The notes under the pieces were generated by a model, which was given only the letters and a program-made list of their open reading frames with translations, made no database searches and was not told the DNA's origin. 64,000 nt of DNA, from the NCBI GenBank assembly GCA_963924565.1, contig OZ004608.1, forward strand, positions 29,326,001 to 29,390,000, in the 5' to 3' direction. Below are positions 42,276 through 63,954 of this stretch, one piece after another. Positions within the stretch are counted from its first letter, which is position 1; the number at the start of each line of letters is the position of its first letter. The DNA is from Ascidiella aspersa (lineage: Eukaryota). Both the position numbers and the translations under genes were made by a program.

Positions 42276-45200
42276 CTATTCGCTCTCCAGTTCGTCTTCG
42301 GACTCCTTCATGGTGATGTTGTTGCCAAGGGGACCGATAGTAACCGAAGCTGTGGCCTCTTCCACCTGTTGAAGAGTTAAGCGGGACTTTTAGTGATAGC
42401 TAAGTTACACATAGACGCCAAGTTTTGGGTGCTTAGGCCGCCACGAGCACCCCTTGCAGAACTTGGGGTGCTCGGCCCCCCTAAATAATCTCGATAAATC
42501 TTCCCGTAAAATATTGTATATTTAGTTTGATGCGTGCGATTGTGAACGCTAACAGTTAGTCAAATACTTTAAGCTCTGTTTCCCATGAGGCAAATACCTG
42601 CCTATAGCAAATAAGCTATTTCTTTCAGGTATAGTTTGGTTATTAATAAGAACGTTTACAGTTACTTTTATTCGGTAAAACGAAACCGATAAGACCATTA
42701 AGGGGCTTTGTCTAAAATGCAAGACGGATTTGTTTTTCGCATTTACTAAGCAAAAAACATATTAAATCTTAAAAGTTAAATTATATTACTCCACATGATA
42801 TAAGTGCATCTTTTTCAGAGAGCATTAAGTGACGTCATATTAAGCGAAATTTTTCAGCATCCCAAGTACACGTGCAAGGAGCTACCGTTGAATTTTTTTT
42901 CCCTGGAAAATCGCAGCGCATAAACGCCGTTTTTTTATTGTGCGAAATAAACACGATAAACGAAAAACCAATCGACGAACAAACTAAAACAGAAAAAGGA
43001 TGAACTCACGGTGAGACGCTTGTGGACGCTCTCGTAGTCCTTGGAGCGTACGTCGGTGACTCCCTGCAACTCGAAGTCCTGGTAGAGCTTCTTGAAAATC
43101 TTAATAAGGGTCTTAAGCTGGTGAAGGTGCAGCTGTAACTCGGAACGCTCCTGAAGCCAGCTGGCGATCAGCTTGGCGCAAGACTTGTACCAGCGCTGAA
43201 GGGAAAAGGCAAAGCGTGATTGGTTGAAAAATTGTTTTAAAAAATGCGCCAAAACGAAAATGCATTTTTTTAGTAACGACCTTAATGTCCTCATTTTTCG
43301 CAGGTACTATGCTATGCAATTGCTATACGGATTGACCACAATCTGGGCCTAGTGGCGCCCGCTCGAAACGAGAGATATTGTTTTATTGATTGGATAGTGG
43401 AATCCAAGGTTTATGCTGACCCGGTGTGAACTTACAACTAACTTTCATCATAAGTATTAGTTATACTTCTAAAATTGACTTTTTTAACATGTTTTTTATA
43501 CTACAACATGGTATCAGTGTTGGCGTCGCGCAGACATTGGTGGCTATAATACATAGTATGCCACGTATTTTGTTTGTTAATTGAGGACATTTCAAGTACC
43601 TTACAGTCCTTTAATACTCAAAATGTCATTAACGCTATGCATCCTTTTCTAGGATAGCATTTGTGTATTATACAATATAAAATATAAGCTGTTATACACA
43701 GTGGGTAGTTGTATTTTACTATCAAGTTGTATTATAGGCGGTTCTATACAGTGAACAAGGGTATTTTGAATACCAAGTTGTACTATGGCCGGTTCTATAC
43801 AGTGAACAAGGGTATTTTGAATACCAAGTTGTACTATGGGCGGTTCTATACAGTGTACAATGGTAATTTTACTACCAAGTTGTACTATGGGCGGTTCTAT
43901 ACAGTGAACAAGGGTATTTTGAATACCAAGTTGTACTATGGGCGGTTCTATACAGTGAACAAGGGTATTTTTACTACCAAGTAGTATTATTGGCGGTTCT
44001 ATACAGTGAACAAGGGTATTTTGAATACCAAGTTGTACTATGGGCGGTTCTATACAGTGAACAAGGGTATTTTGAATACCAAGTTGTACTATGGCCGGTT
44101 CTATACAGTGAACAAGGGTATTTTTACTACCAAGTAGTATTATTGGCGGTTCTATACAGTGAACAAGGGTATTTTGAATACCAAGTTGTACTATGGGCGG
44201 TTCTATACAGTGTACAATGGTAATTTTACTACCAAGTTGTACTATGGGCGGTTCTATACAGTGAACAAGGGTATTTTAACTTCCAAGTAGTATTATTGGC
44301 GGTTCTATACAGTGAACAAGGGTATTTTAACTTCCAAGTAGTATTATTGGCGGTTCTATACAGTGAACAAGGGTATTTTAACTTCCAAGTAGTATTATTG
44401 GCGGTTCTATACAGTGAACAAGGGTATTTTAACTTCCAAGTAGTATTATTGGCGGTTCTATACAGTTAACAGCGTACAGACAATAACTGCGTAAATACCG
44501 CAAAAAAGTACCGTACAACTACAAACAGGCGACACCAGACGGCGTAGCAGAGTCATACGAGCACTCACTGAAAATACTTGCTCGACGAACATCTCGTCGT
44601 TGATGCGATCGCGCAGCACATCCTGGTTTGCGCGCGTGAAACTTGTGAAGCTGGCGGCCAGCTCCATGCCGGGTTTCTGTAGATTAAATAAAAACGCCGG
44701 TTGGCATTTGCTCGGGGTTTGTGTTGTAGTTGTACATACAGATTTCAGCAATAAGATCGAAATACCTAATAGTCGTACTAATGTCTAAATCAGTCGGAAT
44801 AAGACCTAAATGGCCATAATCTAACTTATACAACTTTTTACAAAACCCAGATATAATACTGTATTTATTGAGCTTTATTATGTCGTTGGTCCTAGTGCAA
44901 AAGAATATTCTGCTTTAAATATTGTTGTCTTGTAGGTCTACGCATCAAAACAGTACTTGTATTAACGTGGCTACGGGTTGGCACAAAGCTCCGAGATAAT
45001 TTTAAGATAATTTTCAAATAAAGATGCCCCTTAGACATTTAACTGGTTTAAGTAAGTTAGAAGGTGGTAAATAAGAACACAATATGGGGTTACGATGAGG
45101 GTTTGGCGGAAATGGAAGTTTGTAAGGATTTTTGAATAGAGAACTACGAAAAGCGTTTTAGATATCAATATTTCTACTCTTATGCTTTTTATAAAACCCA

Positions 45201-48200
45201 AAACGGTATTTTTCTTCTCCAACGTTTCGACGTCCTATATCCTTTTTTTATCAGGGAGAGTGACACAGGACACTAAAAAATGAAAAATGTTTTATTTTTT
45301 AAACTATTTTTTTTTGTAATCATACACATATCTGTGAAATTATCTGAAATCAAACGAAATAATTAAAACCAGTTAAATCCATTAGGCCGAACGAAATGCA
45401 CTGGGACCAATTAAACAACAGTCTAATACACGATTTAAAAAAAAAACAAAAAAAACATGAAATATGAAGGCAAGGCCACAGTCATCAGAACACTTTGCAA
45501 TAACTGATAACAACCATCTCTAATTTTGAGCAGGTGTCATTTATGATTTTCATTTTTGTTATATTTTTTAAACTTGAGGTGATTCTCTGAAACAAGCAAA
45601 TACCTGTAACCATACTTCTCTTTAATGAAACAAAATAATTCAACATGGTAAACTCATTAAGCAGAACGAATTGCACTGGGACAAATTAAACGACAATCCA
45701 ATCACTTGTTCAACGAGCACGCCTAAGTATGTTGGTCCTTGTGGGGCATTAATTATCAAAACGCAACGGAGCTGCCTAATTTCTCTGTAATTTAAATGCA
45801 TAAGAAAACCCAATGTACCGTGAGTGCGAAGAGGTTGACGGTGAAGGATCCCTCGTCGTATCGCGACAGTTTGGCGAGCACAGCAAGTAGAATCTTGTCG
45901 AACTAAGGAAAAAAGAGTTGGGTTTGCACACACAATAATTTAAATCCTTTTGGTTATAAATGTAACTGAAATAACAAAGCTTAAAAAAGATCGAAAAAAC
46001 AGCTACGTTAGAGGTCGCCAAAAACGACATCATCTCTTATGCTGCCGCAAATTATTAGTATGTTAAAATGATTTTCTTGTGTAATAGATCCATAGATGTT
46101 TGATGGTCGTAACAATTTCTTTAAATATGATCAGTGTTTTTAACTGTTTAAAAAAGTTAAAAAAAATTATGCTAGCAAGGTAGCAAGATTATACACTTTC
46201 CTGTTAATAAAACAAACTGTTTTTTCTATACTATTGCGATAGTTATCAGTGTGTTTCCATTTTACAAGAAATATTTAAAAAAAAAGTCATTTCTTATGGT
46301 TACAACTCGCTTCGAATGACAGAGATACTGTTATAAACAATAAAAATAAAAAATGGTATTATTTTATCAATTCTGGTTGAAACCATTTAAATTGTCTTGT
46401 TTTGAGGTTTGGCCGATTTTTATGGGTTGCTTTTGCGATTCATTAAAAAAAAGATAGAACCAATAAGGGTAAAAAAACATATACAGGAAAATCATGAAAA
46501 CATTGGACATACAATTTAAAATTGTTTAAGCAAACATGAATCCCAATTTCAGGAACCCTCAAAATGGTATTACAAACGAAATGAAAAACTAAATAGCATC
46601 CCAACAAGCCCCAATAAGCAATTACAATCGAGATACGTTTTTATAAAGATTGGCAAATACGTAAAATAAAGAATATTACGATAAGTTGCTGCTATCTAAT
46701 AGCGTTAAAAATATCAACTATAAGAACTGTTTCATAAAACAACGACGACGAAAATAATAAAATGCTTTTATAGTTTCAAGGCCATATAAAACCGATTACC
46801 CACACACCAGGCCCAGGCAAAAAGCAAAAAACACGGCTTTGGAAAACGTGCACTCACACGCTCGACAAGTTGGGACTCAATGCTCTCAAAGGCGTCATCT
46901 AGAACCTTCTCTACCTCGACGTGATAAAGATGCTGGGTTCCCGATGCGTCGTGTCCTGATGCGCAGATCTTCTCCGACTGTTGCCTGGCAACCGGGGAAG
47001 AGGGAAAAATAAGGTTGCGAGAAATGTCAAATGCTGGTCGTACGAAAGGCAGCAGTTTTTAATATAGGATAATCACTAATCAGGTGGCACTACATATAGA
47101 CAAATTGTATTTAAGTCTTGACAAGCTTTCGCACAACCGTGTTGGAATTGGCGTCTATTTAAAGTTAGCTTTTTCTATAAATAGGTCCAGGTTAAAGTAA
47201 AATATCTAAAAAATTGCTAGGTTAAAAGTAAAATAACTAGAAAATAAATACACAACTGTAGACAAATTATATTTAAGTCTTGACAAGCTTTCGCACAACC
47301 GTGTTGGAATTGGCGTCTATTTAAAGTTAGCTTTTTCTATAAATAGGTCCAGGTTAAAGTAAAATATCTAAAAAATTTCTAGGTTAAAAGTAAAATAACT
47401 AGAAAATAAATACACAACTGTAGACAAATTATATTTAAGTCTTGACAAGCTTTCGCACAACCGTGCTTCATTAGGTCAAAGAAGAAATAAAAAGAATTAA
47501 AACGCACGTAAAAGCACAAGCGCGAGTAAAATGCGATAAGAATGGTGACGTCTAACATATCCACAGAGCTTTATAGCACGCCTTACCCTACTAACAATTA
47601 GACAAATGCGGCCATAAATGCATTTACAAAGATTTTTAACATAGTATCATAAACGGTGAAGTAGTAGCATCGGGGCAGCTTCGATACAAAATTCGGAAGT
47701 TACCTTGGTATTGGGTGGGCATCGATACCAACTGAAATTAAGAATTTAAGCGATGCCTTGTGATCTAACGGGGTGATTTGTATTTTATAGGTGTGTATCA
47801 GAGAAAAAAATAAGTTAAAAAATCGAAGATGAAAAGGCTTCCAATAACGCAAAATCAAATTTCGGACTACTACGCTGAAAGTCATTAGCAATCACATTTC
47901 AACTTGATGGCTTGTTTAACCATTGTAATGAGAACATTTGGTATCCGATCGGTTTGCGGTTCTTTTTGCTCAAAATATCGGGTATTGGATTAAAATACCC
48001 AGTATCCGACATTCGTAGCAGAAGTTATAGTTAAACTTTTTTCGATATGCGCAAACCAGACAAAGCGGTTATGAAAGAAAAAATGGCTCCAAAAATCTTA
48101 AAAATACCAAGGAGAAAGTTAACTATGAACTTAACGCAATTTTGCATTTTATACATAACTTAAATCGACGCGGTGAAAGGCGACTTGCGAATCGCGACAA

Positions 48201-51200
48201 AAAAATCAAAAATAAACTTAAAAACAGTCGAATGTCTCCATAGCGAGCGAATTCCACTTTACATCGTGATTATTAGGAAAATCATTGAGAGTAATCATAT
48301 CGACCAAGGAAATCGTCAAAACTTTCTGTCGAAATCTAAGTTTAGTGCATTTACAGTATCTAATATCTAAAATCAAATTATGGCTGCACTAAACAAGTTT
48401 TTCGTTTCTTACCTTCAGAGCCACGGTTTAGCTGACATTTTTATCCATTTAAAGACTTAAACTACGCGACCCTATTCCCTATGGAGAAGCCTTGGCTTGT
48501 TCTGCGTCTGCGTTGGTATGAAGGATTATCCCAGAGCAAAATTTTTGTGTTTTAGTGATTAACGCTATATTGAATTTTGCCCCGTTCGTGTCCGTACTGA
48601 CAAACGACTACACGAAAAATATTTTTCAGTTCATCGAAAATCGATTGCATCAATTAGTTTTGTCATGTGGTTCTGTTTTGCCGAACGAGGCCTAATGATG
48701 TTACCTTTTCATGATTATTTCAAGTTTTAGCTAGAAATAGCCAATTTTAACAGTGTATTCAAATTGTTTTACTGGACATTGGGCAGTGTACAATTTGTTA
48801 GTCTAAATTGCTTTATTTTCCGTGGGTACTGGTGCAATTTTTTAGGTCGCTGTTGAAAATCAACGGGTCAGCGAACATTAAAACAACATGTTAGGTGGGC
48901 AAAAGAACGTACAGCTTACTAGCATGTATGCAATGGTTACTTTTAATTTTTTAACACCCGACACTTAAGGTATTTTATTTATAAGTTCCTTCATTAGTTA
49001 TCACATGGGGTACAGGATTGACGTTCAAAACCTGTGGATAATTAACATTTTTTCCTGTGTACTTTTTGAAAAAAAAATGCGCGCAAAAATTTTGCACAAT
49101 TTGATAACACCCCGTTCACGGTCGACTGACCTGCACTCGAGAGCGACGTTGATGAGTGCGCACAGCTGATGCGTGATGACGAAATCGAGCGACACGCGAC
49201 ATGCAGTCAGGATGGTGGTGAAGCGCTGCAGAGTCCTGCGACACGCGACAAGTTAAGTTGAAATTAGGTGTATTTTTGAGGTTAGCTTTTGCTATAAATA
49301 GGCCTAGGTTAAAGTAGAACAACTAAAAAATTGTTAGGTTAAAAATGGAATAGCTATAAAATAAGTATTTTTTAAGTAAGCTTTTTTTAGGTTTCTTCTA
49401 AAAGTATGAGCAAGTAAACTTTTGCTGCAAACAGCCATAAACTGGTTAAAGTGGAATAACTAAAAAGTAAATACACAATAAATTTAAAAATATTCTAATT
49501 ATAGTTTATAAATAGTGTTATCGTGAAGTTTATGTGCAATAACACACCAATATTGGCGTGTTTTATGTATACAACTTCACTATAATGATGCAAATCCGTT
49601 GCGACTCATGGACTAACTTTTTGATTTGAAATAACTAGTGCTCTTCAACCGGGGTGCACCAAAATATGCATGGGGTGCACCAGTACTAAAAGGTACACAA
49701 GGGTACATCACAAACTTTTAAAGAACCATTAATATGGCATTGAATGCTACTTTATGACATGCAATAGTACTCGCAAGCAGCCTGCAACCACAATCGAACT
49801 CTCACCGATAGTGTGTAAAACTTCAGCAGCTCCACTCGGTTTAATTGACATGATGATATTGATATGCATAATTTATTTTCATATCGCTTTTTACCTCAGT
49901 TTACCTTTTAAGTAAACAGGGTTCATGAGTTCGCCACAACACAAAGGGTATTACGAAACCAAAAAAGATTGAAGAGCACTGCATTAGATTACTTAGCAAG
50001 CTCGGGTTACTCAATTAAATCAGTAAAATTGTCCCCAGCGGTACAAAGGCTTCAAACCTACCTGGTGACGACACTCTGTATCATGTCGGACGCCATAAGC
50101 TTGAGCCTGTGCTCGATGTGGCAAGCGAACACGTCATCTGGCCAGTGAAGCTCAAGCACGAAAGCCTGGAGCGCCTCAAGTTTCCAGAGTACGTCGTTCG
50201 CAACGTTGATCGGGTTCGTTCTGCGCAAAGGGGAGTTTCGATATCATAACGCCGGTCAATTCGCCCGTAAAGTAAGATATGCTATAATTTAACTCTACAA
50301 TTTTAGAAGGTTTAATGATGTTAATGGTAAGTTAATATACAAGCAAAAACGGTTTCCATTTTTAAGCACGGCGATAAAAAAGGTTGTAGTAAGAGGCAAA
50401 GAGCAAACGTAAAAGTAAAATATATATTTTTAAATGAATTTTCGAAGATTTAATATGTAGTTGTTTTTTCAAAGTTACTAATAGGTTATTCCAAAGATTT
50501 AAATAGTATTATCGACGACATACGACATCCGGGGAGTTGCAGTATCATAGTAGAAAACGTCGGTTAATTCGCTGGTAAAGTAAGTTAAGCGGAAAATAGT
50601 TTCAACTTCCTAATTTTATAGCGTTAGGTGACGCGCGACGGTAAGTTACTTTGAAAGTAAAACCATATTCAATTTCGAAGCATGGCGATGAAAAAGGTTG
50701 CAGTACGAGCACAGAAGAAAAATTTAACTTGAAAAATTTCTTTGAAAAAACATTTAATTTAAATAAAAATATATAATACATATTCGTTATTTTCAATTTA
50801 ATACATGTTGAACAATTTGAATTTTTCCGAAAATTTAGAATTTTTGGAATTAGAGGCACAAAGGAATTTAAAAATGTAAAATTCAAATATCTATTTTTAA
50901 AACAATTTCCTAGGATTCAATATATAAATTGGATTTTTTTCCAGAGTTACCAATAGGTTATTTCCAAGAGTTGAATAGTGTTACCGACGACATGAAAACG
51001 ATTTATAAAAATGAATAAAATATAAAAAAACTAATCAACTCTGCGCGTTTAGCCGAAATCAAAAAAAAAATCTGTCAAAAGAAATCAACATATTTCACAA
51101 AAATAAAAACTTTAAAAACGGCTTTTACGTATTCCAAAGATTTAAATAGTGTTTTTGGCGACATAAAACCGATATATAACAAAAACAATTGAACAAACGT

Positions 51201-54200
51201 ACAACGCCCTAAACAGTCAACTTATTTACAAAAACAAAAAATCTAAAAAACGCCCATACGTGCTTGCGTCCCATGCCTCCTTGCCGAATCCGCGGTGAAT
51301 GGATTGCGCGATCGAGGATTCCATTAAGTCGACGTAGCGGATCACCAGCGGAGCGAAAGTGTCGCGCAGGTGAGAGTGGAACTTGCCCAGCTTAAGGTTG
51401 GCTGCGGGAAATCGGAGGAAAAACATTAGTTAGATGACGTGGAATTGACGGGCGTCGTGGGTAAATCATTTAGAGCGGCTATTAATAAAACCAGTGCATT
51501 CCAAGTCAATTTCTATAAGTGCAAAATTTCGCTACATTTATGTTAATAGTTTTTTTTTATATTTTGTACAGTTTTCAGCAGAATAATATATTAACAAAAA
51601 CAATGACATAACACTTACTAGCAGGAACATTAATAAATAAGCGTCTTATTGTTTACTAAAAGCCTTGCTCTTTAAAACTCCCCTTAGAATGTTAAAAAAC
51701 ACCAATACATAAAAAAAGCAATTGGCCGACCAAGTGAACCCCAAGGGTTGCTGATCGCAGGTTTAGAACCAATTTTCTTGAGCGACGAGCACTCACAGTT
51801 AGGATTATGGATGTCAGATGAACAGGATAAGTGCCGACCCTAATACCAAATGTATTTGTGCATTTCAACCATGGGTTGCAATCTAATGCAGCGTTTGTTT
51901 TCTTACCTGAAAGGCTTCATTGTATAATAAATATTTCGCACGTTTCGCACAAGCTATCGTGTATAGGTTATCAAATAAACTTACACTGACATTTAGTAAA
52001 ATACTTATCTCTATGATTCCACGTAGAGATACGCGCTTCTATATAGTAATGAAATAAAATCCAAAGCATCGAATACTCCTGTACTCACGGTCGTTGAGGA
52101 GGTAGTCGTTAAGCAGCTGGAAGACCGGAAAGCTGTTCCAAGTGTCGGGAGCCTGCCGTTCCAACACCGAGTCCATGTCGACCGCGAAGAGCGACCAGAA
52201 AATCTCCGAGTGCTCGTTCATAAGGTCGCTGAACCACGCGAACGCCTGCCGCGATTTTTCGAAATTTTTATTAAGCTGCGAAATTGGCGTTTTTCGTTCG
52301 AATGCCACCATTAGGCAAAGTGCGAATGGATCCAGGTTTACGAAAAACATATTAAAAAAAAGCAGACTGATTTCGGTTGCCCAAGTCGCGGGTAGAATAT
52401 ATACAGGGTTGTTAGCACACGCTTTTATGTAAACAGTTCAAAGACAGTTAAAGGCTTAAAAAATAAAATTTGTCGCTTTACATCGATCTAAAAGTGGACT
52501 TTTCATAAACCTAAAATTGGACTTTTCAAAATCCTGAAATTGGACTTTTCAAAAATCTGAAATTGGACTTTTCATAAACCGAAAATTGGACTTTTTAAAA
52601 ACCTGAAATTGGACTTTTCATAAACCTAAACTTTTCATAAACCTGCTCACCAAAGGTCAAGTTACGCGAAGGAGCTTAACTTCTAAAAACCGCTATGTTT
52701 ATGTGGGCAGGCTCGCAAAGCGGCCACGAAAAATCGTTCGGTGTAAACCAGGGGTTCCCAACCTGTGGGCCACAAGCCTTTTTCAAGGGGGCCATGAAAA
52801 AACTGTATGATACTGTACAAACCATTTTTTAAATTAAAATTACGTTTCTTTATTTTTTTAAAAGGTTGAAAAAATAAGGGGGCCATTGATTTCTCAAAAT
52901 TTTTAAAGGGGGCCACGGTGTAAAAAAGGTTGGGAACCCCTGGTGTAAACAATAGCTCACTGTTGTAACCTATAGCTGCTTTGTCACCAGGATCTATTAT
53001 TGATAGCGACGATTGGCGCCATATAATCAAATAACGATGGTCAAATTCACATTCAAGGGCGTCTCTGAGGGGCTGTCGTGTTGTAAAAACGAGATTAGTC
53101 TCGCTACGTTGTCTGCGGCTTGTCGTCATTTCCCAGTTGCGCTATGGTTTTGAACACAAAATGCAACATAATCGATGGCCTGTTGTTGAATTTGTTCAAT
53201 AACGCTGGCGACAATATCGATAAAAGAGCAACTGGTCGTTTTGCATTATATATGAATCGCCTATTTTGCAGTCCTTGGTCGCAAGATGTTGAGTGATTCG
53301 CGGGAGTTTTAAGTCCCTAGATTACCCCAACGTTTGCAGATAATCGCCGACTAGTTAATGCAGTGGTTGTCCCACTTTTCTCTTGCGACGCTTTTGAAAA
53401 TATTTTGCTGTACTTGGGACGCACCAAGCGATAGGAATTTTACTAATTTTTGATCTTTTTCATTTGTTCGTACCACAAAATCATTATCATTAGTTGCAGT
53501 TTGTTTCCTAATAATGGTTGTAAATCACATGCCAGAGGATAATAATAATAGCAAGCATTTTATTACTAAAACTTACTATGGCATCATTGACTGCCCTTTT
53601 TAGAGTTTTAGTGTCTTACTCCTGCCTCTAAAATTGACGTATGACCAATACTCGATTAATAAATAAATAACAGTACAATGGCCCGACAAGTTGCATACAG
53701 ATGAACAAAATAGTAAAGAGTTAAGAGACGGGGTTTTAGTTCCTTTAAATCAGCATTTTAAGATAGGAGATCATCCTAAATCATTTTTAAAAATACATTC
53801 TAAAATATAGTTAAATTTCCCTTTGGAGATAAGTAATTACATTGGTTAGCAAAAGTTGCTTCAATCGTTAAATAGCCCTGGGACGAACCAATCGTAAAAC
53901 AAACATGTGCAATATTGCGTATCAATTATATACAATTATTTGACGGCTCTTATCGGGATTGCTTTGTGTAATTTGCGTTTTAGGTGAACGGTATTTAAAA
54001 TCCTTTCTTTGCAAAAATCTAGTCTTTCTAATTTGCTAACGAATTGTCAACAACACAAACTGTTTTACGCATCCATAATGCTTGGTGTGGTATTTGAAAC
54101 GTGCAAATGCGTGCTTCAATTAGCGTACTACGCATTGTACAGCAATAGCCTTTGTGGGATACGAGCAATGGAAAAAAAGGTGTTGTCGCTATCATTTTAG

Positions 54201-57200
54201 GGTATAAATAAATTGCAAAACAGCACTTTTGCAGGGTTATGTGTTTAAAACAGTGGTTCTCAACCGGGGTGCCGCGGCACTCCAGGGTGCCATTTTTATC
54301 ATTCGGATTCCAATTTTTGCAGCTTTTTGAAACTTTTTTTTGTGTATGATAAAAGTGCCAAAATTTAAAAACGGTTTTTTAACCTTGTTACACAGGTAAT
54401 GTGCTGCTTCAATCTCGTTTATTTAAACGTTACAATTAACCACTCAGCAAAAATACGAGCAAGGGTGCCGCTACTATTTATAATTTTTGTAGGGTGCGGC
54501 AATCCAAAAAATGTTGCGAAACACTGGTTTAAAGAATCTTCGTCAAATATAGTCCTAATGTACCCGCAATTATCACCACACCAAAAAAATGGCAATTTAA
54601 TTTTAAAACCAACACCAACGTTTACAAGGTTGCACAGTACCCCCACACAACCGCTCTTGGCAAAAACATTAACAATGTAGAAGAGGCACGGCCAAACAGA
54701 CAGGCCTCGCTGTAATTCACATTAGGGCTTAACGAAAGAAAATTTTACACACGACGTAACGATTACGAAAGCATGCAGAAATATCACCCACACTCGTCTT
54801 ACCTCCTTGCCCTGGACGCCCGACAAAGCAAGCAAAAAAGCAAACGGTTAAATGATAAATTAGTGTGTGAAGCCCATTAATCAAAACCTAATCCACATAA
54901 GTCCAGAAAAAATACTTACATAACATACAGAATTTCGATGTTTATTTTTATACCTTTAGGTATGTCCGATACTAGGTATTTTATTCTGATAGTTATAACC
55001 GACATTTTTCGACAAAGTATCGCCGATCTTATCCGTGGCCAATGACGTCATTACTATGGCGAAATAAGCAAAATTAGTCAAATTTTAACGTGCAAATGTG
55101 ATGTGCTGTTTGGCTGACAACAAACTGCTTTAGATGTGCGAAACATAAAGTTGCTTAAATTTGGCTTCGGGTATCGGCTCCGAACAACTATAGTTGGATA
55201 ACCGTTGAAGAGCTACAGCGCACAGCAACTGTAAACTTTCTCGTTTGTTAAAAAAAACACTTAAGCCGCATTTATTAATTAAACGTCAAGGTGTTAAAAA
55301 AGAGAAAAACACGTATTTACTTCGGGTTCTCACGAGAAACCTTGACTCAACCAATTTGGTAGACATTATATAAAAAGTATGCTCGATGCCAGCACGTACC
55401 TCGTAATGGTGTTCGTCGTTTTGTTGAAGCACGTCGATGCAAAGTTCGGCCAGGTGAGTGGTCAACTCGAGTTGTTTGTTGGCCTCTTGATCTAAACTCT
55501 CTGTTGATAATCCACAAACATTCCGGGGTTAAATAACACGATTTGGCGACGTTTTTTGAAACGGTTTACAAAAAAATCGTTTTGTTGCCAATGTTATGGC
55601 TCAAACCGTTATCCCGGTTGAGTGTCTTGTTTGTGATAAACATTCAACTTGGCAAATAAAATGCTTTATTTTTAATGCAATTTCATTTCTGTAAACAAGC
55701 CACGAAACATAAATTTCTTTTCTTTGAGAATGGTGTTTTACAATTATCGGGGAAGGTTTAAATTACGTAGAAAAACACAAATCCGGTCTTTAAAAATATT
55801 TCGACGTTTCAAATAAATACGTTTACCGCTGACAAACAGAAAATACACATGTGTTGGTAGGATAGCAAACACCCGTGATACAGCACGCAATTACAATCTT
55901 TAGGCACTCACGAGCAAATATGAAAAAGGGGACTTTTTCACCTAATCATGCAAATAATTGTGATTCACTGCAAATGGTACTGTTTTAATAGTTGGGTCGT
56001 CAACTGTCCGTGAAAAACATAACATGCAATCATTACAGTGGTTTAGAATTACTACGTTTAATATATCGTAGAGACAGAACTATATATGAATATATTATGC
56101 AGTCCGAGTAATACAAAACATCGTAGAATAGCTGTAATTTACATTACCTAATATTTATAATGTCCCTGATCCAAAATACAAGTTTGTCAGCGTTCGTTTC
56201 GTACAAGCGGAATTAAGTCGAATAAAATTGGCAACCGACCACAACTACAGGTGAAAACAAATTTATCACTATCTTTGACCAAGTTTTAATTCTTTGCATT
56301 TAATAAATTTAGTGTTTGGAAAATTTCGTAAAAATAAAATTGGACTTTCGTAAAAAAAAAATGTTGGACTTTTTAACTTAGTAACTAGAAAATTACATTA
56401 AATCTTAACAATTGAAAATGACACAGAAAGACGACTCTAAAAAATAGTGTTTTAATATACCCAACTATAACATTGTGTCGGCAAGTCCACAATGGGACAG
56501 TTTCATCCAAAAGGACACAACAACAAGAAAACAAACAATCAAACAACCGAATAAAATCATGCAGCATCATACTACACAACTACACACAAAAACACCTACA
56601 GACAGACAGTCTAATTACTGTTTATTTGCGGGGGCACGGCTTTTACGATTGATGAAACGGACTTGGTTAAACCTTACAAGAAAAGATAAACATTACCGAC
56701 GAAATATCTTAAATAGTTGTACAGTACAAAAAGGTTAAGGATATTTTTAAAAGGTAAAGCTTGGTTTAAACCATGGATGTCCAACATTTTATTACAGTGG
56801 GCCGCATTAACACTTGAAATAATTTAATGGGCCGCAGAACCTATTAAGTTTCAAGATTAAGTATTGCTCTTTAGAGTTATAACGGGCCTTTTTAGAGTTA
56901 TATATATATTTTTTACCCATACTATACTATTAGTGCGCACCTAAAAGCTGACTGGTACATTTTAATTAGGCTAATATTGAACGTTTAAAATACTACTTGG
57001 GAGTGAAAATGACTATAGCGGACCGCACAAAAATTTCAGACGGGCCGCAGGTTGGACATCCCTGGTTTAAACTATATTTAATGTTTTCATTGCTTTTACT
57101 ATGCGTTAGATTGACAGATTAACAAAACGACACAGAGCAATTTTGTTTTGGCATTGTCCAAAGAAGTTTAACTCGGCATGAGCAAAGCAAAATGACATTA

Positions 57201-60200
57201 CAATACCAAGATTTATTTTGAGAAGTGAACCAGAGGTTTTGGGTGAAAAGGGTGAATAAGTATTTGAAAGTACGAGACAACTTTTTGAGATTATTCCTTT
57301 TTAAGAATTTTAGGTTATCCAGTTTATTACATTGTATTAATAAAACGGGTGCCTTCGAGAAGGCTTACTTAATAGGTTGGATTTCAATGGTCGCAAATCG
57401 AGGATAAAAATAGGCTGTGAGAAATTTTGCACTCACGAATACCCTAAATATATTACTGGCCGACCAATTTTTGCAAGCCTTTCCCAAAGCACATGGTCTT
57501 TTATTAGGATTTGTGAGTCGGCACACAAAATTTTATAACTGTGTTAGTTATAAAATCAAGAGGGCGGAATTATGCAGTTGCAAGGAGTATGACACTGGTG
57601 GCAGAGCGTTTACCACGTCCAACAAAGGTTAGCGATATGCCCGTTTACCAACCCAAGCGACATCTTTACAATATTTAAACGTATGTAAGTTCAGAAAGCA
57701 ACAACTCGCAGCTTGGACAGCTTACCGTCTACTTTGGCGTACTCCGACACCCTGGTGTAGTTGACCAGTGCCGCGTCTTCAAGGCATTTCTTAATAATGC
57801 TGCGTACCTCTTCGGCGGGAACGGGCGTCACGATGTCCTTCATCATTACCTGTGGGTTGCCAAGGAAGGAAGCTTTACTTTTGATGTTGATAGTCATAAC
57901 ATTTTATAAATACAGCTTTTATTTGGGCAGATTACAGCAAAGTACCACCTACACCTTTGGGGGCACATGGCCAAGTTTTAAGGCAGTGGTTCTCAAAGTA
58001 TGGGTCGCGACCCAAACATGGGTCGCTCTATAGTGATTCAATCCTGCGCAAACGAACTTTTCATAACTATTTTCAAGTATTTTCAATTCAATTCACGTGG
58101 CTTCAAATCTGTAACCTGGATCATTGGATATCATAAGAGGTTTTATGAACGTTTTGAAGGCAGCCGCAGCTACAGTATAGCCATAACCAACTACACTAGC
58201 TGTTAAGACTGGTGTAAGCTTTAGTCACCAAACAAGCCACGGTGATATTATAAAGGAAAAAAATCAGTTTCACTAATCACACTAAAATATATCAATCATT
58301 TGTTTGTAATCAATCATTCTTTCTTAGAACTGTGTAGGCTACTATATCTGGTTGTCGTGTCTTTTTTTATTTCATGCATGTCAGAAAAAATAGATTTTTT
58401 TATGTTTAAGCTTGGGTCGTGAGATGCTCATAAAACTCAGATTTGGGTCGCGCTCAAAAAAGTTTGAGAACCACTGTTTTAACAGGTCCCTTAAGATCTA
58501 AACGAAGTCTTAGTCTTAGTGTATAATTTAAAAAATAAAACAACATCCACAAAAATCTTAAATTGAAAAAAAACAACAACATTGGATCTTTCAACTAGAA
58601 TACATTTAAACTACATTTTAGTTTTACATTTGTTGAGCCGAAAACAGTTTTCTCAATCCACTTGTTTAATGACTTCAATTTACGGCGTGATCTTTCATGC
58701 CGACAATGGTTCACGCGAATCAAAGTTTTTTAGGGGATCGCGTTAAAAAAGTTATAAAACCTCTGGTTTAAAATATATTGTGAATCACTTTCGTATAACA
58801 AGTTTAGTTTTAAAATAATTCCCAGTTTTATTGCAAATAACACTTGTTATAACAACCGTTTTTAGAATGCAAGGCAGAGTTCCGTCTTTTCTAGTTTCAA
58901 CTTTTTAAACTTAATGAAACAAAAAAGACTTTCAGAATTAAAAAAAATGCATAAAAAGTACCTACATTTTTTTTAAGACTACAAGAAGCGCCCAATATGC
59001 CATCAAAAAAAACAAAAAATCAAAGAGAAGATACAGTGTTGTAATGACTTGAGTCAATGAGGGATGACTTGACTTAAGTATTTTCATCAAAATGATTTGA
59101 CTTAAACTAAGTCATTGTGTCAAATAACTTGGGTTTAAAGTGTTTTTTTTTTTAATATTTTTCAAGAAAATTTGCTCGTTTATCAAATTTTTGCACTTAA
59201 ATCAACTTGCTGGCTGTATATTACGGTTTTGTTATTTTTAGCTTAGATATTTCTAGTATTTGGACGAGTTTGCTAATCTCAATAGACAAACGTATTATTT
59301 TTTATGTCAATGAACGACTTAAAGTTGACTTGCACTTATAATGACTTGGCTGGGACTGGACTTGCTAACTTTTGAAAAAGACTTGACTTGGACTCGAGTT
59401 ATTTTTTGAATGACTTGAGTCACCTGACTAAGACATAAGTTATTTCGACAAGACTTGCTGACAACGCTGGAAGATACTGACCCGTTCCAGCAGGGAGAGT
59501 GTTGCCTTCAAAGCTCCCTGTGGCCGGCCGAAAGGGAAGCAGTAGCGGAAGTGTGTGATCTGATGCATGAGATGCCTCCTCAGCAACTCTTGTATCTCGT
59601 CGAAGCGGTTCTTCTCGTCTTGCGTCACCGTTCCAATCCCGTCAGGCCTGAGAAAAAAATCAGAATTTCGATTGGTAACCTCTTTATTTTCTTTTATTGT
59701 GCTCATAGTATAGTTGCTAAACTTTTCAGCTGACAGTAAGTAATAAAAACTGCATAAAAAATACACGCTTTTTACAAAACAAAGTTAAAATTTAAAAGAG
59801 GGGTGGGCAAGTTACGGCCCGCCAACGCAAATCATCCAGCCCGCGACCTATTTCACAAACAGGGCACTAGGCCATTCCTCATTTATTTTAGGCTAGTTCA
59901 ACTATTCGAAATAGCAAGCATGTTTTGCATTTTGCGTTAATACTGTTCCTCCATCGAGTTGAAATTGCAAAATACCCTAGTTTTATCCCTTAATTAACTG
60001 TCGTTGCGGTTATAATAGGATGCGTAAATACACAGTTAACATTTAACGGCCGACAGAGACCTTTCTGTTTTGGTTAAAAAAGTTGCCCACCCTGATTTAA
60101 AACATGGATGCATGCATAACTATTTGTAATGCGAATACGTTTATTTTTTCACACACACTGATCTCTTTTGTTTACAAACCACTTTAGTGGAGCCATACAG

Positions 60201-63200
60201 CCGCGCTGATCAGTCTGCATTGCATGTACGTTTGTGAGTTTGACTTTTTGCCGAAAAACAAAAACTGGTAGATAATATACTTATATTTCTATTGTGAAAC
60301 AGTCATTGTTTTCTATTTTTTGAAGATTTTAAATTCACGAGGTCGAACACAGAAATCTTCTGTGCGTCAATAAATAGAACCGACAGTTTTTTTTTTAATT
60401 TTTACATTGTTTTTTCGGGTTGATGATTCACAGAGGTCGTTCAAACTAGCAAGGGGTCACTATAATGATCAGTTATTTTCCTGAAGTATTTATCGATTCG
60501 TACTTCGCCATTAAGATGTTGATGGATAATCGCTTACCGCGAAAAGTCGCATTAGGGCCACGTCATAACAGCTTTCAATTAGTATTCTGGAAAAGCGGAA
60601 AGCGAAATTTTACTATTAATTTTTTGCCCTTAAATTTTTTTTTTAACTCAATATACAGTTCCAAACGTCAGTTGTAAATGTCAACCTATATTTTTTTTTA
60701 ATTTCCGGGTTATTAAAATGTCAAAATGTTCAGCTAAAAACGCAAGAAAAAGTGCCACCACCTTTCAGAAAAAAGTCAATAAAAAGCTTAAAAAACATAA
60801 ACAGGGTTGGGATTTCGCACGCGCCCGCTCGTCAAAGCGAGTGCAATTTGTTCCAGGCGAGTGGTGATTGATTTTGCATCCACTTACCTGACTGGCGAGT
60901 GGCCTAAAGCAAAAATTGGTTGTTGTTCTGTCGTTGTCAACTCTATATTGACCTATTGCTAAGTTCATCAGCGAACAATTCTGTTAAACGCCCACTGCTG
61001 AAAGCCACCTACGCAACTAACAACGAATCAACAGGCGCATCGCACATGGTAAAAATCCTACGCATCTAATATTGCGATAAACAGCCAAGCCTCTATAATG
61101 GGCATAGGAACATGTTATTTTACTGAGCATCGAATTCTTTAATAGCTTTCTCGTGGAAGATGTTTCGCCGTGGAAATGTCATTTTTTGGCGAGTGGTATT
61201 TTGTCCGGGCGATGCTTATTTAATGGTCACTCGACCGCCTTGTTTTAATTCCAACCCTGACTAACATTTTTTTTTGCATATAATGAAAGTTAAATATTAA
61301 CAAACGTCTATATGATTTAAAAAACATTTCTATGTTGTTGTTTTTTCATACAGTTTCATGTACTTAGTCGCAGATCGTTGATTGCGATTTTTACCTGTTG
61401 CCATAAATGTGACTGGCGCAGAATGCAAAGCTGTAGTGAAGCAAGGTGGGGTCGATCATCAGGCCTTGCTGGGCGCGCTCCAGTAGATCTAAAAATGCAA
61501 TTAACAGGTTAGATGTAGGCTAAGGCAGTGACGTAATACTACGTCACACGTCGGAGTGCTAGTGGTCAAATGAGGTGTTTCTGTGATGTCACCGATATAC
61601 AATTAATTAAACAACACTGTACATTGTACAACCGTGTAGGTGGTTATTACAGTAAAACTTCTCTGGTCAGACGGAATTTGGTATTATAATCGATGATTGT
61701 GTTCTATGCGAAGGTTTATGCGAAGGTGTAAAGGTAATCTATTACACATTTTGGTTAAATCCGATTTTTCTTAACATTTTCGAACAAAACACTTAATACA
61801 ATAGAAACAAGTTTGAAAACATCAGTAGGAACAGGCGGTTAACACAGTTTTAACTTTATGTTTTACCATGTAGTTTGTCCATCAGCGATGAAGTTAAACC
61901 AGCTAACATTAATTTTAGACTTCATATACACCATATTATAAAATAAAAACTTATCTGCAGGCGAAATGTTTAAAAAAATGTACAATTCAAAATTTCTACT
62001 AGAAGAAAAAATGACTCAAAACTGCAGATTTGGTTTTGAACAAAAAAAATTGCTCGGAGTGCGTTAAAAAAACTGTCGTGACGATTCTATAGCAAATAGT
62101 TTAGAGCTTACCGGCGAGATAGCAGAGGTGCCGGTGGCATCCACGCACTCCGTAGCGGGCGCAGTACTCGTCCAGCACGAACACCTGGCCAGGCGAAAAC
62201 CAGCCCTGAAAAACAAAAACATTAAAAACTGTTTTATAAACTTACCTTTCAAGGTGGAAATAAATAGACATTGCTGAAATTATTATATTACTTTAGTATC
62301 GTATCGGCACCGTTACCACCCAAGTATCAAACGAATACCGATACTACCATATCCCACTTAGCATCCGGTATGGGCTGCGATTTAAAATTATCGGACATAA
62401 TTTAGTTCATACGATTAACAACTGAAAGAGGGAATAATTTCGCCAAACTATAGTTAACGCAAGGCGTTATTCTATACAAATATTCATTCGGTAAATAGAT
62501 TTTTTAGCAAACAACAATCCTATTGGAAAGCGTTTACTATCGATTTTGTACACGAGAATTTTTTTTATAAAAAAATTGAGTAGGAAGGTGCGTTGACACG
62601 GTATATATTCTGGTTATGTACGTAAAAAGCAGATAACAAAATTGTATTACATTTTTTATACCAACTTAAAAACTATAGATTTCTTCGCACAGTGTAACCA
62701 AAACGTATTTGGGAGACACCTCTCCAATTTTAAAGTTTAACAAAATAAATCCATTATTATGGTTTGTGACGTAAACTTGTCACAACTAGTTTTCCAAAAC
62801 TGTTTGATGTATGATCAATACGTAACGTCTCCTTTAAAAGTCTGGCATTTTAAACCAAATAGAACGATTCTATATGCGTCTCTCTGTGTGTACGTGGTAC
62901 AAAAAAGAATTCAATCAATTTTTTTTATTTCCCGAAATACGCCTAGCCTCTTGAAGAAACGAAAGTATCTCACCAGGCAGGAGTAGCAGTCGTTGAGCCG
63001 ATGATCAAGTGTGAGTCGTTGCAGCAGCTCGAAGAGGGACGAGTGGTCGTACTTGCACGGGTCGGCCGATATAAAGTCGTCCATGCCGTGCTTGCGCGCC
63101 CGGTCCGCGTCTGAAGTCAAATGACGGATAAGGTAAGCGAGTTTTCAGTTAAAAAACTTTTATTTACTATCCTTTAAGAATAGTCAAAATGGCCGTAGTT

Positions 63201-63954
63201 ATTTTCGTGGAATGCGAGCAATTGACAAATAATATAAATCCAGGGTGTACTGATTTCCAAAAAAATAAAGGCCAACACAAATCGTTTAAACGTAACTTTA
63301 AGTCCAACATAAGTAATAAGCGTAGTAGTTTAAGTCCAACATAATTAAGTTATTCCCAAAATAACGAAATATCAAGTCAAATTAAATACGAAACCGTAGT
63401 CCTGCTAAGGTAATTTACAAAACTACTTTAAGCTGACTTTAAGCCTTACCATAGTAATTAAAGTTCAAGTCAATTTACTTGAAGCTTGAAGGTTTATTTA
63501 TTTGCAAATTACCTTTAAGTGCATTTATTTTCAAAAGCTAAGTTTTAAGTAATTTGAAAAAAACTCCCATTAAGTCAAGTCGATTGATGCCATGTCAAAT
63601 AAAGGGCAAGTCAAATCGTTTGCAAAATAACTGGACTCCAATTTAAAATTCGCTATATATATGTCGTCCGCAAAGTTGCCTAATATTAATCTCGTGAGAC
63701 AACAACATGACGCTGCCGACTCCACTCAAGTCAAAGTGAAATAATTATCAAAAATCGTATTATAAATTAACTTATTTGCAAAAACACAAAACAGAAAAAC
63801 AGAAAACTCACAGAATTGCGACACGGGCGCGTCGAGTTGTCCGTGTTTGCCGGCGTTTAGCTTCTGCACTTGGGTGGGCGGCACTGGCTTGTGCGACTGG
63901 CCGGTGGCTCGGTACATTGCCTGCACCCACAGAATGCGGTCCTGTTCGTCGTCG
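42276..63954 (-). CDS. CADPS: Calcium-dependent secretion activator (CAPS/UNC-31), 3' portion (PH-domain end, MUN/MHD1 region, C-terminal vesicle-binding region); 5' end lies beyond the window
   Basis: 16 in-frame GT-AG exons: 63954-63812, 63110-62974, 62205-62112, 61488-61395, 59647-59482, 57849-57726, 55500-55400, 52245-52089, 51401-51260, 50220-50062, 49235-49131, 46984-46858, 45902-45819, 44676-44569, 43195-43010, 42365-42276. Near-identical CAPS motifs: [91 protein letters not shown]. Confidence 0.96.
43703..44467. repeat. 51-bp minisatellite, ~15 copies, in CADPS intron
   Basis: Unit GGGTATTTTGAATACCAAGTTGTACTATGGGCGGTTCTATACAGTGAACAA and variants, head-to-tail with no spacers. Confidence 0.95.
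47097..47465. repeat. 162-bp tandem repeat, ~2.3 copies
   Basis: TAGACAAATT(G/A)TATTTAAGTCTTGACAAGCTTTCGCACAACCGTG starts at 47097, 47259 and 47421. A diverged relative lies near 49260-49480. Confidence 0.9.
49636..49981. mobile_element. hAT-like MITE
   Basis: Termini TAGTGCTCTTCAA and TTGAAGAGCACTG with GGGGTGCAC subterminal repeats. TSD not recognisable. Confidence 0.6.
52495..52645. repeat. ~23-bp minisatellite, ~6 copies
   Basis: Unit TGGACTTTTCATAAACCTAAAAT with variants. Confidence 0.85.
52749..52942. mobile_element. Young 194-bp hAT (Charlie/Buster-like) MITE
   Basis: Perfect TIR CAGGGGTTCCCAACC and perfect TSD GTGTAAAC (52741-52748, 52943-52950). Confidence 0.9.
54251..54526. mobile_element. 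hAT (Charlie/Buster-like) MITE
   Basis: CAGTGGTTCTCAAC...GTTGCGAAACACTG, TSD GTTTAAAA/GTTTAAAG. Confidence 0.8.
54803..54811 (-). CDS. CADPS: 9-nt CADPS microexon encoding GKE
   Basis: Minus strand TTTGCTTTTTTGCTTGCTTTGTCGGGCGTCCAG|GGCAAGGAG|GTAAGA. Phase 0/0, between HHYE and AFAWF, the position where vertebrate CAPS proteins have an optional short insert. Confidence 0.8.
55912..55941 (-). CDS. CADPS: Candidate 30-nt CADPS cassette exon ([10 protein letters not shown])
   Basis: TTTGCATGATTAG|GTGAAAAAGTCCCCTTTTTCATATTTGCTC|GTGAGT. Phase 1/1, open and frame-preserving. Confidence 0.4.
56619..56672 (-). CDS. CADPS: Candidate 54-nt CADPS cassette exon ([18 protein letters not shown])
   Basis: TTTATCTTTTCTTGTAAG|GTTTAACC...ATAAACA|GTAATT. 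Phase 1/1, open and frame-preserving. Downstream UG-rich tract with TGCATG at 56558-56563. Confidence 0.4.
56772..57064. mobile_element. hAT (Charlie/Buster-like) MITE
   Basis: TIR CATGGATGTCCAAC/GTTGGACATCCCTG, GGGCCGCA subterminal repeats, perfect TSD GTTTAAAC. Confidence 0.88.
57984..58476. mobile_element. hAT (Charlie/Buster-like) MITE
   Basis: TIR CAGTGGTTCTCAAA/TTTGAGAACCACTG, TGGGTCGC subterminal repeats, TSD TTTTAAGG/TTTTAACA. Confidence 0.85.
59034..59432 (+). mobile_element. GACTT-rich MITE (family A)
   Basis: Starts CAGTGTTGTAATGACTTGAGTC and is colinear with the copy at 209-630. Confidence 0.7.
59798..60094. mobile_element. hAT MITE
   Basis: GAGGGGTGGGCAA...TTGCCCACCCTG, GGCCCG subterminal repeats, identical flanking 8-mers ATTTAAAA. 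Confidence 0.7.
60802..61259. mobile_element. hAT-like MITE
   Basis: CAGGGTTGGGATT...AATTCCAACCCTG with repeated GGCGAGTGG subterminal motifs. TSD not evident. Confidence 0.6.

Follow-up and report, generated by a model that had tools for sequence, protein, structure and literature searches.

Known CADPS microexons and their regulation

The closest described counterparts of the element reported here are 9-nucleotide (nt) microexons of vertebrate CADPS genes. In human CADPS the exon HsaEX0012113 (9 nt, chr3:62498146-62498154) lies at H899/H900/A901/E902 of PDB structure 6A68, at a site given as 31% solvent-accessible with secondary structure HCCC, and is catalogued as retina-enriched, its percent-spliced-in (PSI) value being 78 in retina against 24 for neural and 5 for other tissues (PMC9303857). 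In zebrafish, cadpsa, cadpsb and cadps2 each have a 9-nt exon whose inclusion falls, by 30, 32 and 42 PSI respectively, in mutant eyes at 5 days post-fertilization, the mutants being srrm3 mutants according to that paper's text (PMC9303857). The zebrafish cadps2 exon (DreEX0018370) is listed with a neural dPSI (difference in PSI) of 96 and its human ortholog HsaEX0012134 (CADPS2) with +98.7 PSI upon eMIC overexpression (PMC12626424), and CADPS2 exon 19 is described as a 9-nt, SRRM3-controlled exon adding three residues between two helices (10.1101/2024.06.13.598849). Here we describe a 9-nt exon of the ascidian Ascidiella aspersa, located in the CADPS (CAPS/UNC-31) gene within a 64,000-nt stretch of contig OZ004608.1 (positions 29,326,001 to 29,390,000; hereafter the window, to which coordinates refer unless prefixed G000, for the genome). 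Because it adds GKE in frame where two CADPS exons meet at the optional G(K/R)E junction, this exon is, on sequence comparison, very likely the same cassette microexon as the G(K/R)E exon of other ascidians and of vertebrates.

The exon is already catalogued in vertebrates and annotated in Ciona and Styela, so a further ascidian with it comes as no surprise. The interest of the find is evolutionary and practical: targets of the eMIC domain are rarely shared outside vertebrates, yet the same three residues are found from sea squirts to mammals. The target sets are reported to turn over fast outside vertebrates, with only 4 target exons at the same position in fly and mouse (10.1101/2021.02.24.432780), and since such conservation is low the ascidian CADPS exon represents one of the less common shared cases. 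Searching the literature by title and abstract, we found no paper on this exon or on eMIC in a tunicate, although the 2019 eMIC and 2014 microexon papers may cover them, and likewise no study of the regulation of the Ciona and Styela CADPS isoform pairs.

A GKE microexon in the Ascidiella aspersa CADPS gene

The 3' part of the CADPS gene was mapped by tblastn with CADPS proteins from Phallusia, Ciona, Styela and catshark. The microexon, its splice signals and the two exons that flank it are as follows.

42304..63954, minus strand: 3' part of the CADPS (CAPS/UNC-31) gene, 17 mapped exons including the microexon (tblastn)
55400..55500, minus strand: upstream flanking exon, 101 nt, ending ...QQNDEHHYE, MUN domain (PF06292 profile positions 44-72)
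54847..54863, minus strand: two putative branch-point-like motifs, CTAAT (A at 54860, -49) and TTAAC (A at 54848, -37) (sequence)
54828..54842, minus strand: U-rich tract with three UGC, predicted eMIC (SRRM3/4-type) enhancer, the role being suggested by 10.1101/2024.09.17.613571 and 10.1101/2021.02.24.432780
54812..54814, minus strand: 3' splice site CAG, preceded by a 74-nt AG-free zone (sequence)
54803..54811, minus strand: 9-nt phase-0 microexon GGCAAGGAG, encoding Gly-Lys-Glu (sequence, and homologs at the same junction)
54797..54802, minus strand: 5' splice site GAG/GTAAGA, five of six intron letters as in GTAAGT (sequence)
54772..54777, minus strand: TGCATG, candidate RBFOX-type motif, 25 nt 3' of the exon (sequence)
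52089..52245, minus strand: downstream flanking exon, 157 nt, starting AFAWFSD, MUN domain (PF06292 profile positions 77-135)

The initial annotation, which was made from the DNA letters, had described CAG/GGCAAGGAG/GTAAGA, three upstream UGC motifs and a TGCATG 25 nt downstream, and all of these are present on the minus strand where it placed them; the branch-point-like motifs and the 74-nt AG-free zone are additions to its list. Both junctions flanking the microexon are phase 0, the upstream exon ending in QQNDEHHYE and the downstream exon starting with AFAWFSD, and the 9-nt exon therefore preserves the reading frame. In length, phase, position at the HHxE/AFAW junction and encoded residues it corresponds to the G(K/R)E exon group.

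Assignment of the gene to the CADPS family is straightforward. Every exon has its counterpart in the CADPS of Phallusia, Ciona and shark, the PF06292 matches of both flanking exons exceed the cut-off, the sole PDB match is CAPS1 6A68, and the best protein matches are from Ciona and Phallusia. The nearest homolog along the gene is Phallusia CAB3227414.1, to which most exons are about 80-100% identical. A search of the species' own genome with the downstream exon returned a single match, i.e. one CADPS locus was found; the 5' exons lie outside the window and reach G000:C2 about 29,406,808, some 17 kb further.

Distribution of the insert in ascidians, vertebrates and other animals

The proposal that this is an in-frame 9-nt CADPS cassette exon equivalent to the vertebrate G(K/R)E insert at HHxE/AFAW agrees with the ascidian and vertebrate homologs. 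The Phallusia protein CAB3227414.1 reads HHYE-GKE-AFAW at the junction. In Ciona intestinalis, GRE at the junction is the sole difference between XP_078487945.1 and XP_078487946.1 and again between XP_078487947.1 and XP_078487948.1, and the same is true of XP_039264030.1 and XP_039264031.1 of Styela clava; in C. savignyi, GKE is present in H2Z3B9 and there is no insert in H2Z3C0. These Ciona and Styela RefSeq pairs are automatically annotated and are direct orthologs that carry GRE where A. aspersa has GKE. Because RefSeq holds both isoforms in these two species, the initial suggestion that the exon had probably been missed by automated annotation is contradicted. The junction is present in 18 ascidian entries, a C. 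savignyi entry that lacks the upstream exon having been excluded; of these 18, six have GRE, two GKE, seven no insert and three another insert.

For vertebrates, 67 entries picked by name from the best 120 of 4,131 matches to the Phallusia region show GKE in 63, GRE in three (lamprey) and no insert in one, a tally that is biased because the query itself carried GKE. GKE is also found at the same junction in frog CADPS2. The human exon HsaEX0012113 thus resembles the ascidian exon in its 9-nt length and junction, with GKE in vertebrate CADPS1 proteins, and differs in being catalogued as retina-enriched. The CADPS2 9-nt microexon (HsaEX0012134, DreEX0018370) is likewise 9 nt long and adds three residues in the MUN region; its regulation has been measured, as strongly neural and SRRM3/eMIC-responsive, whereas the ascidian exon is known here from sequence.

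Mammals have a second, 21-nt exon (PHVDKGE) at this junction, which occurs in no ascidian entry. In a cluster of bat CADPS1 proteins (15 of 16 members) GKE is present in three, PHVDKGE in two, both in five and neither in five, and these combinations indicate that mammals have two independent optional exons here. Included and skipped forms of the three-residue exon are thus annotated in Ciona, Styela and a bat. Two mouse exons were considered as orthologs and rejected. The Cadps exon rescued by RBFOX1 is 21 nt long, though its primers flank the junction (PMC13067610), and the 'GLK' Cadps microexon sits at another junction, PISQF/ADRA, and has no ascidian counterpart that we could find; the latter and its worm equivalents resemble the ascidian exon in gene family, in being tiny in-frame optional exons and in neuron-type-specific inclusion, and differ in that the worm regulators are EXC-7 and MBL-1 (PMC12287369).

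Outside chordates, G(K/R)E is found in none of 162 full-length entries, of which 96 have no insert, 65 an unrelated insert and one was unmatched; three unnamed entries were left out of this count, one of them showing GKE within a vertebrate-like sequence context. There is no amphioxus protein among the named matches listed, so the exon is demonstrated for tunicates and vertebrates only, and the initial description of it as an ancient chordate exon holds for these two groups and no further.

The 65 unrelated inserts also raise the possibility of independent origins for the G(K/R)E exons of vertebrates and tunicates, at a site prone to gaining exons. We regard this, together with the related notion that the A. 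aspersa sequence is an unspliced relic or a chance match, as very improbable, as length, phase, position and the G(K/R)E residues are shared by four ascidian species, lamprey and jawed vertebrates and by no non-chordate entry. The unrelated optional inserts at HHxE/AFAW range from 1 to over 80 residues and occur in hemichordates, sea stars, molluscs, nemerteans, crustaceans and insects, with one-residue inserts in a wasp and a scallop. Judged from these protein sequences, the junction is a long-lived hotspot for new exons across bilaterians.

Splice signals and motif layout

The A. aspersa exon has the features of SRRM3/4 (eMIC)-dependent microexons: these are 3-27 nt long and frame-preserving with UGC between the branch point and the AG, and commonly have an upstream branch point, a long AG-free zone, a strong donor and a location in a vesicle-traffic gene. 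Here the exon is 9 nt long, the branch-point-like motifs are shifted upstream, and the three TGC in the U-rich tract lie at 54842, 54834 and 54830 (-31, -23 and -19 relative to the exon), between these motifs and the AG. Unlike such microexons, its tract has no clear UCUC-rich element.

Across the window there are 96 YAG-N(3-30)-GTRAG sites. Seven of them combine one or more TGC with a pyrimidine content of 60% or higher, and in this set the microexon is the sole site with three TGC and the sole site with a TGCATG no more than 100 nt away. On the minus strand of the window, at least three TGC occur in 0.64% of 32-mers and TGCATG in 1.1% of 50-mers. The 3,154-nt intron contains 23 stop-free in-frame candidate exons of 3-30 nt; the microexon acceptor ranks first among them for AG-free length and for number of TGC, and its donor score is equalled by one other candidate. 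At the other 16 CADPS exons in the window there are zero or one TGC in the same interval and in no case a TGCATG within 100 nt. The acceptor of the downstream exon (52089..52245) is purine-rich, with 7 of 20 pyrimidines. Genome-wide, a UGC-type 9-nt exon pattern gave ten matches against four in a reversed control, with a pattern spacing one base off that of this locus, a comparison that is uninformative. Taken alone, the motif layout is suggestive, and proof of the microexon comes from the homologs.

A second 9-nt candidate between AG and GT is present at 44478-44486 (minus strand), just after the exon ending at 44569; it has one TGC, a 30-nt AG-free zone and the donor GTACGC, and is weak.

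Candidate trans-acting factors

The initial annotation had likened the upstream layout to that of SRRM3/4 targets, and this comparison is borne out by the sequence and joined by an eMIC gene in the genome. The genes considered as candidate regulators or their relatives are as follows.

G000:C4:342299-345999, plus strand: eMIC gene, four exons matching Ciona XP_026694906.1 in order (sequence match)
G000:C2:32004540-32008430, minus strand: cwf21 with an 885-residue arginine/serine (RS)-rich frame (profile match and frame)
G000:C1:22897002-22897027, minus strand: RBFOX (Fox-1) RNA recognition motif (RRM) exon, best PDB matches RBFOX1/2 RRMs

The starting point for the eMIC gene was a sub-threshold PF15230 match at G000:C4:343,377. 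One exon there terminates in ...SPSYLERRRIT at a phase-2 donor; 2.4 kb further on, the following exon reads ARKPPIPY. The matching Ciona protein XP_026694906.1 (RefSeq 'SRRM4', SRRM4-like gene LOC100182812) has 179 residues and a PF15230 match of 28.1 bits, above the cut-off, with no other Pfam domain and no cwf21. A homolog search with the A. aspersa eMIC exon returned none among 136 candidates; in a full-library search with 16 matches the only close one was the Ciona protein (71% identity), the rest being 30-44% identical. The organism accordingly encodes an eMIC-domain protein, from a gene orthologous to Ciona 'SRRM4'.

The two cwf21 matches of the genome lie on a different contig from the eMIC gene. 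One of them opens the 885-residue RS-rich frame, which from its sequence we infer to be SRRM2-like, and no eMIC motif was found in the 50 kb around it. The last residues of the frame (SYSPMLKRKRR...) resemble what we take to be a decayed first half of eMIC. Given the Ciona 179-residue protein without cwf21 and the cwf21 gene on another contig, eMIC has its own small gene in ascidians. This does not fit the statement in the Introduction of 10.1101/2021.02.24.432780 that non-vertebrates make eMIC by processing of Srrm234 through an alternative 3' end.

A vertebrate-type neural eMIC regulon may have been present in the tunicate-vertebrate ancestor, with ascidians keeping the CADPS target and its UGC code, driven by a dedicated SRRM4-like gene of about 180 residues apart from cwf21/SRRM2; we consider this evenly balanced between true and false. 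If true, Ciona would offer a model with one regulator and one CADPS gene for the effect of the microexon on vesicle release, and ascidian larvae a clean one-regulator, one-target system. The stand-alone ascidian eMIC gene is the better lead. Unless it has been covered previously, it has a bearing on the time of origin of dedicated neural microexon regulators.

The RBFOX exon was located via an RRM motif, and Pfam Fox-1_C has no match anywhere in the genome. The RBFOX gene and the UGCAUG in the proximal downstream intron (+25) together give the arrangement of an RBFOX-regulated cassette exon. The initial proposal that RBFOX promotes inclusion stands as far as motif and gene are concerned, and is weakened by the 21-nt length of the mouse RBFOX target at this junction (PMC13067610).

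Inclusion and regulation

Overall we think it probable that the GKE exon is a cassette microexon for which skipping is the likely default, with likely inclusion in neurons or photoreceptors when an SRRM4-like eMIC protein acts at the UGC tract. From the sequence, the microexon is almost certainly included in this species, and by analogy with its vertebrate counterparts a neural bias of inclusion has good probability. Dependence on eMIC, again by analogy, is somewhat less assured though still likely, and a contribution of RBFOX is tentative. An exon this small would be too short for normal exon definition. The upstream branch point, the U-rich tract and the UGCs at -31 to -19 could let eMIC help early spliceosome assembly, the strong GTAAGA donor would complete recognition of the microexon, and RBFOX at the downstream UGCAUG might add to inclusion.

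Contigs of three DNA runs show zero variants in the exon, the splice sites, the UGCs and the TGCATG, one of the three having no coverage of 54851-54897. A variant at 54821, G to T on the coding strand and inside the tract, is present in all three runs. Over 54560-55040 a single contig has 3 of its 18 substitutions in the 201 bases around the exon (binomial P 0.023), a value that carries little weight since the interval was picked after seeing the data and the contig is of low depth. Intact splice signals that are variant-free in the three runs argue against the exon being an unspliced relic. In favour of a relic are zero inclusion reads in the RNA data for this species, which consist of one run labelled as the same species, with tissue unstated and about 6 in 100 of its reads examined. 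The run contains no spliced read for the included or the skipped isoform and no read over 54764-54950, and its mean depth of at most 1.3 in the bins holding CADPS exons is too shallow to inform either way.

Besides this missing RNA signal and the query bias of the vertebrate tally, a series of observations weighs against neural, eMIC-dependent inclusion or its vertebrate parallel. The ascidian RefSeq isoform pairs establish that the exon is optional and do not speak to a neural bias. In human CADPS1 the 9-nt exon is enriched in retina and is not pan-neural, which weakens the initial reading, and its SRRM3/4 response is listed as NA (PMC9303857). For the 9-nt exons of zebrafish and of CADPS2, equivalence with the G(K/R)E exon is inferred from exon length and order, in CADPS2 from the position upstream of a 120-nt exon. 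UGC is reported to be neither required nor diagnostic for a response to SRRM4 (10.1101/2024.09.17.613571), the mouse RBFOX-target Cadps exon at the same junction is 21 nt, not 9 (PMC13067610), and C. elegans MUN-gene microexons (unc-13/unc-31) are controlled by EXC-7 and MBL-1 (PMC12287369). Within A. aspersa, AG-free zones are longer at three ordinary CADPS exons (97, 83 and 75 nt), and the eMIC exon alone scores 18 bits, below the 27 of Pfam. For the protein, the structural model is unreliable at the insert, as described below, and no functional assay of the GKE isoform was found in the literature searched.

Several of these points would suit a real optional exon controlled mainly by RBFOX or by ELAV/MBNL-type proteins, with eMIC playing a minor part in tunicates. 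The well-placed TGCATG, found at none of the other 16 exons, the RBFOX gene, the worm regulators and the fast turnover of eMIC target sets outside vertebrates are all consistent with such control. The UGC motifs moreover sit in UGCU contexts, which we take to be MBNL-type sites as well. We nevertheless consider it unlikely that eMIC is minor, as loss of srrm3 and overexpression of eMIC both alter 9-nt exons of the vertebrate CADPS family (PMC9303857, PMC12626424), the three UGC between branch point and AG match the eMIC layout, and an eMIC gene is retained both here and in Ciona.

The exon could also be optional in ascidians without neural bias, included broadly or in endocrine and secretory tissue such as the neural gland or endostyle. 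The CADPS2 9-nt exon is included in neuroendocrine tumour cells (10.1101/2024.06.13.598849), and the single Phallusia record includes the exon. Such a pattern is quite improbable in our view, given that the vertebrate exons are near zero outside neural tissue (PMC12626424, PMC9303857), that the annotations of Ciona and Styela include the skipped form, and that the cis elements are arranged as in regulated neural microexons. Neural inclusion through eMIC is the reading that we prefer.

Predicted effect on the protein

The crystal structure 6A68 corresponds to the skipped form. An AlphaFold model of Styela CADPS with GRE (residues 735-737) places the insert at the end of a helix (707-737) and ahead of the next (740-767), with a pLDDT (predicted local distance difference test) below 50 for residues 733-740. 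This model and the published HCCC assignment point to an insert at an exposed helix-to-helix bend. The included product would accordingly be three residues longer where two helices of the DAMH/MUN domain meet at a surface bend, DAMH being the SNARE-binding part of CAPS (PMC12702071). Whether vesicle priming is affected we judge to be an even call, and any effect of the three extra residues would be fine-tuning rather than an on/off switch.

Other optional exons, repeats and neighbouring gene

Two further optional inserts of CADPS proteins were compared with this gene. Phallusia has a 16-residue insert in the region corresponding to 55501-57725, where, going by a published primer, mouse Cadps has its exon 16a, and no convincing counterpart of the 16-residue optional Ciona exon was found between 57726 and 55500. 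The optional SGLKD insert (12 nt) of vertebrate CADPS1 corresponds to a junction at 63111-63811 (minus strand); it is not present in the seven ascidian entries examined, and a motif scan of the intron gave no candidate.

The CADPS introns contain a 51-bp tandem array of 14.9 copies and short high-copy repeats, and two of the repeats flank the single-copy island of the microexon on either side. Contig depth at three of the intronic repeats is hundreds of times that of their flanks. The repeats, from contig depth and repeat analysis, are as follows.

43711-44471: intronic repeat
52782-53007: intronic repeat
54138-54589: intronic repeat
54951-55010: intronic repeat
56624-57075: intronic repeat

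A glycosyl hydrolase family 31 gene lies 3' of CADPS at 22417-30229 (minus strand), with PF21365 at 22417-22965 and further likely exons, recognized by eye, to about 30.2 kb.

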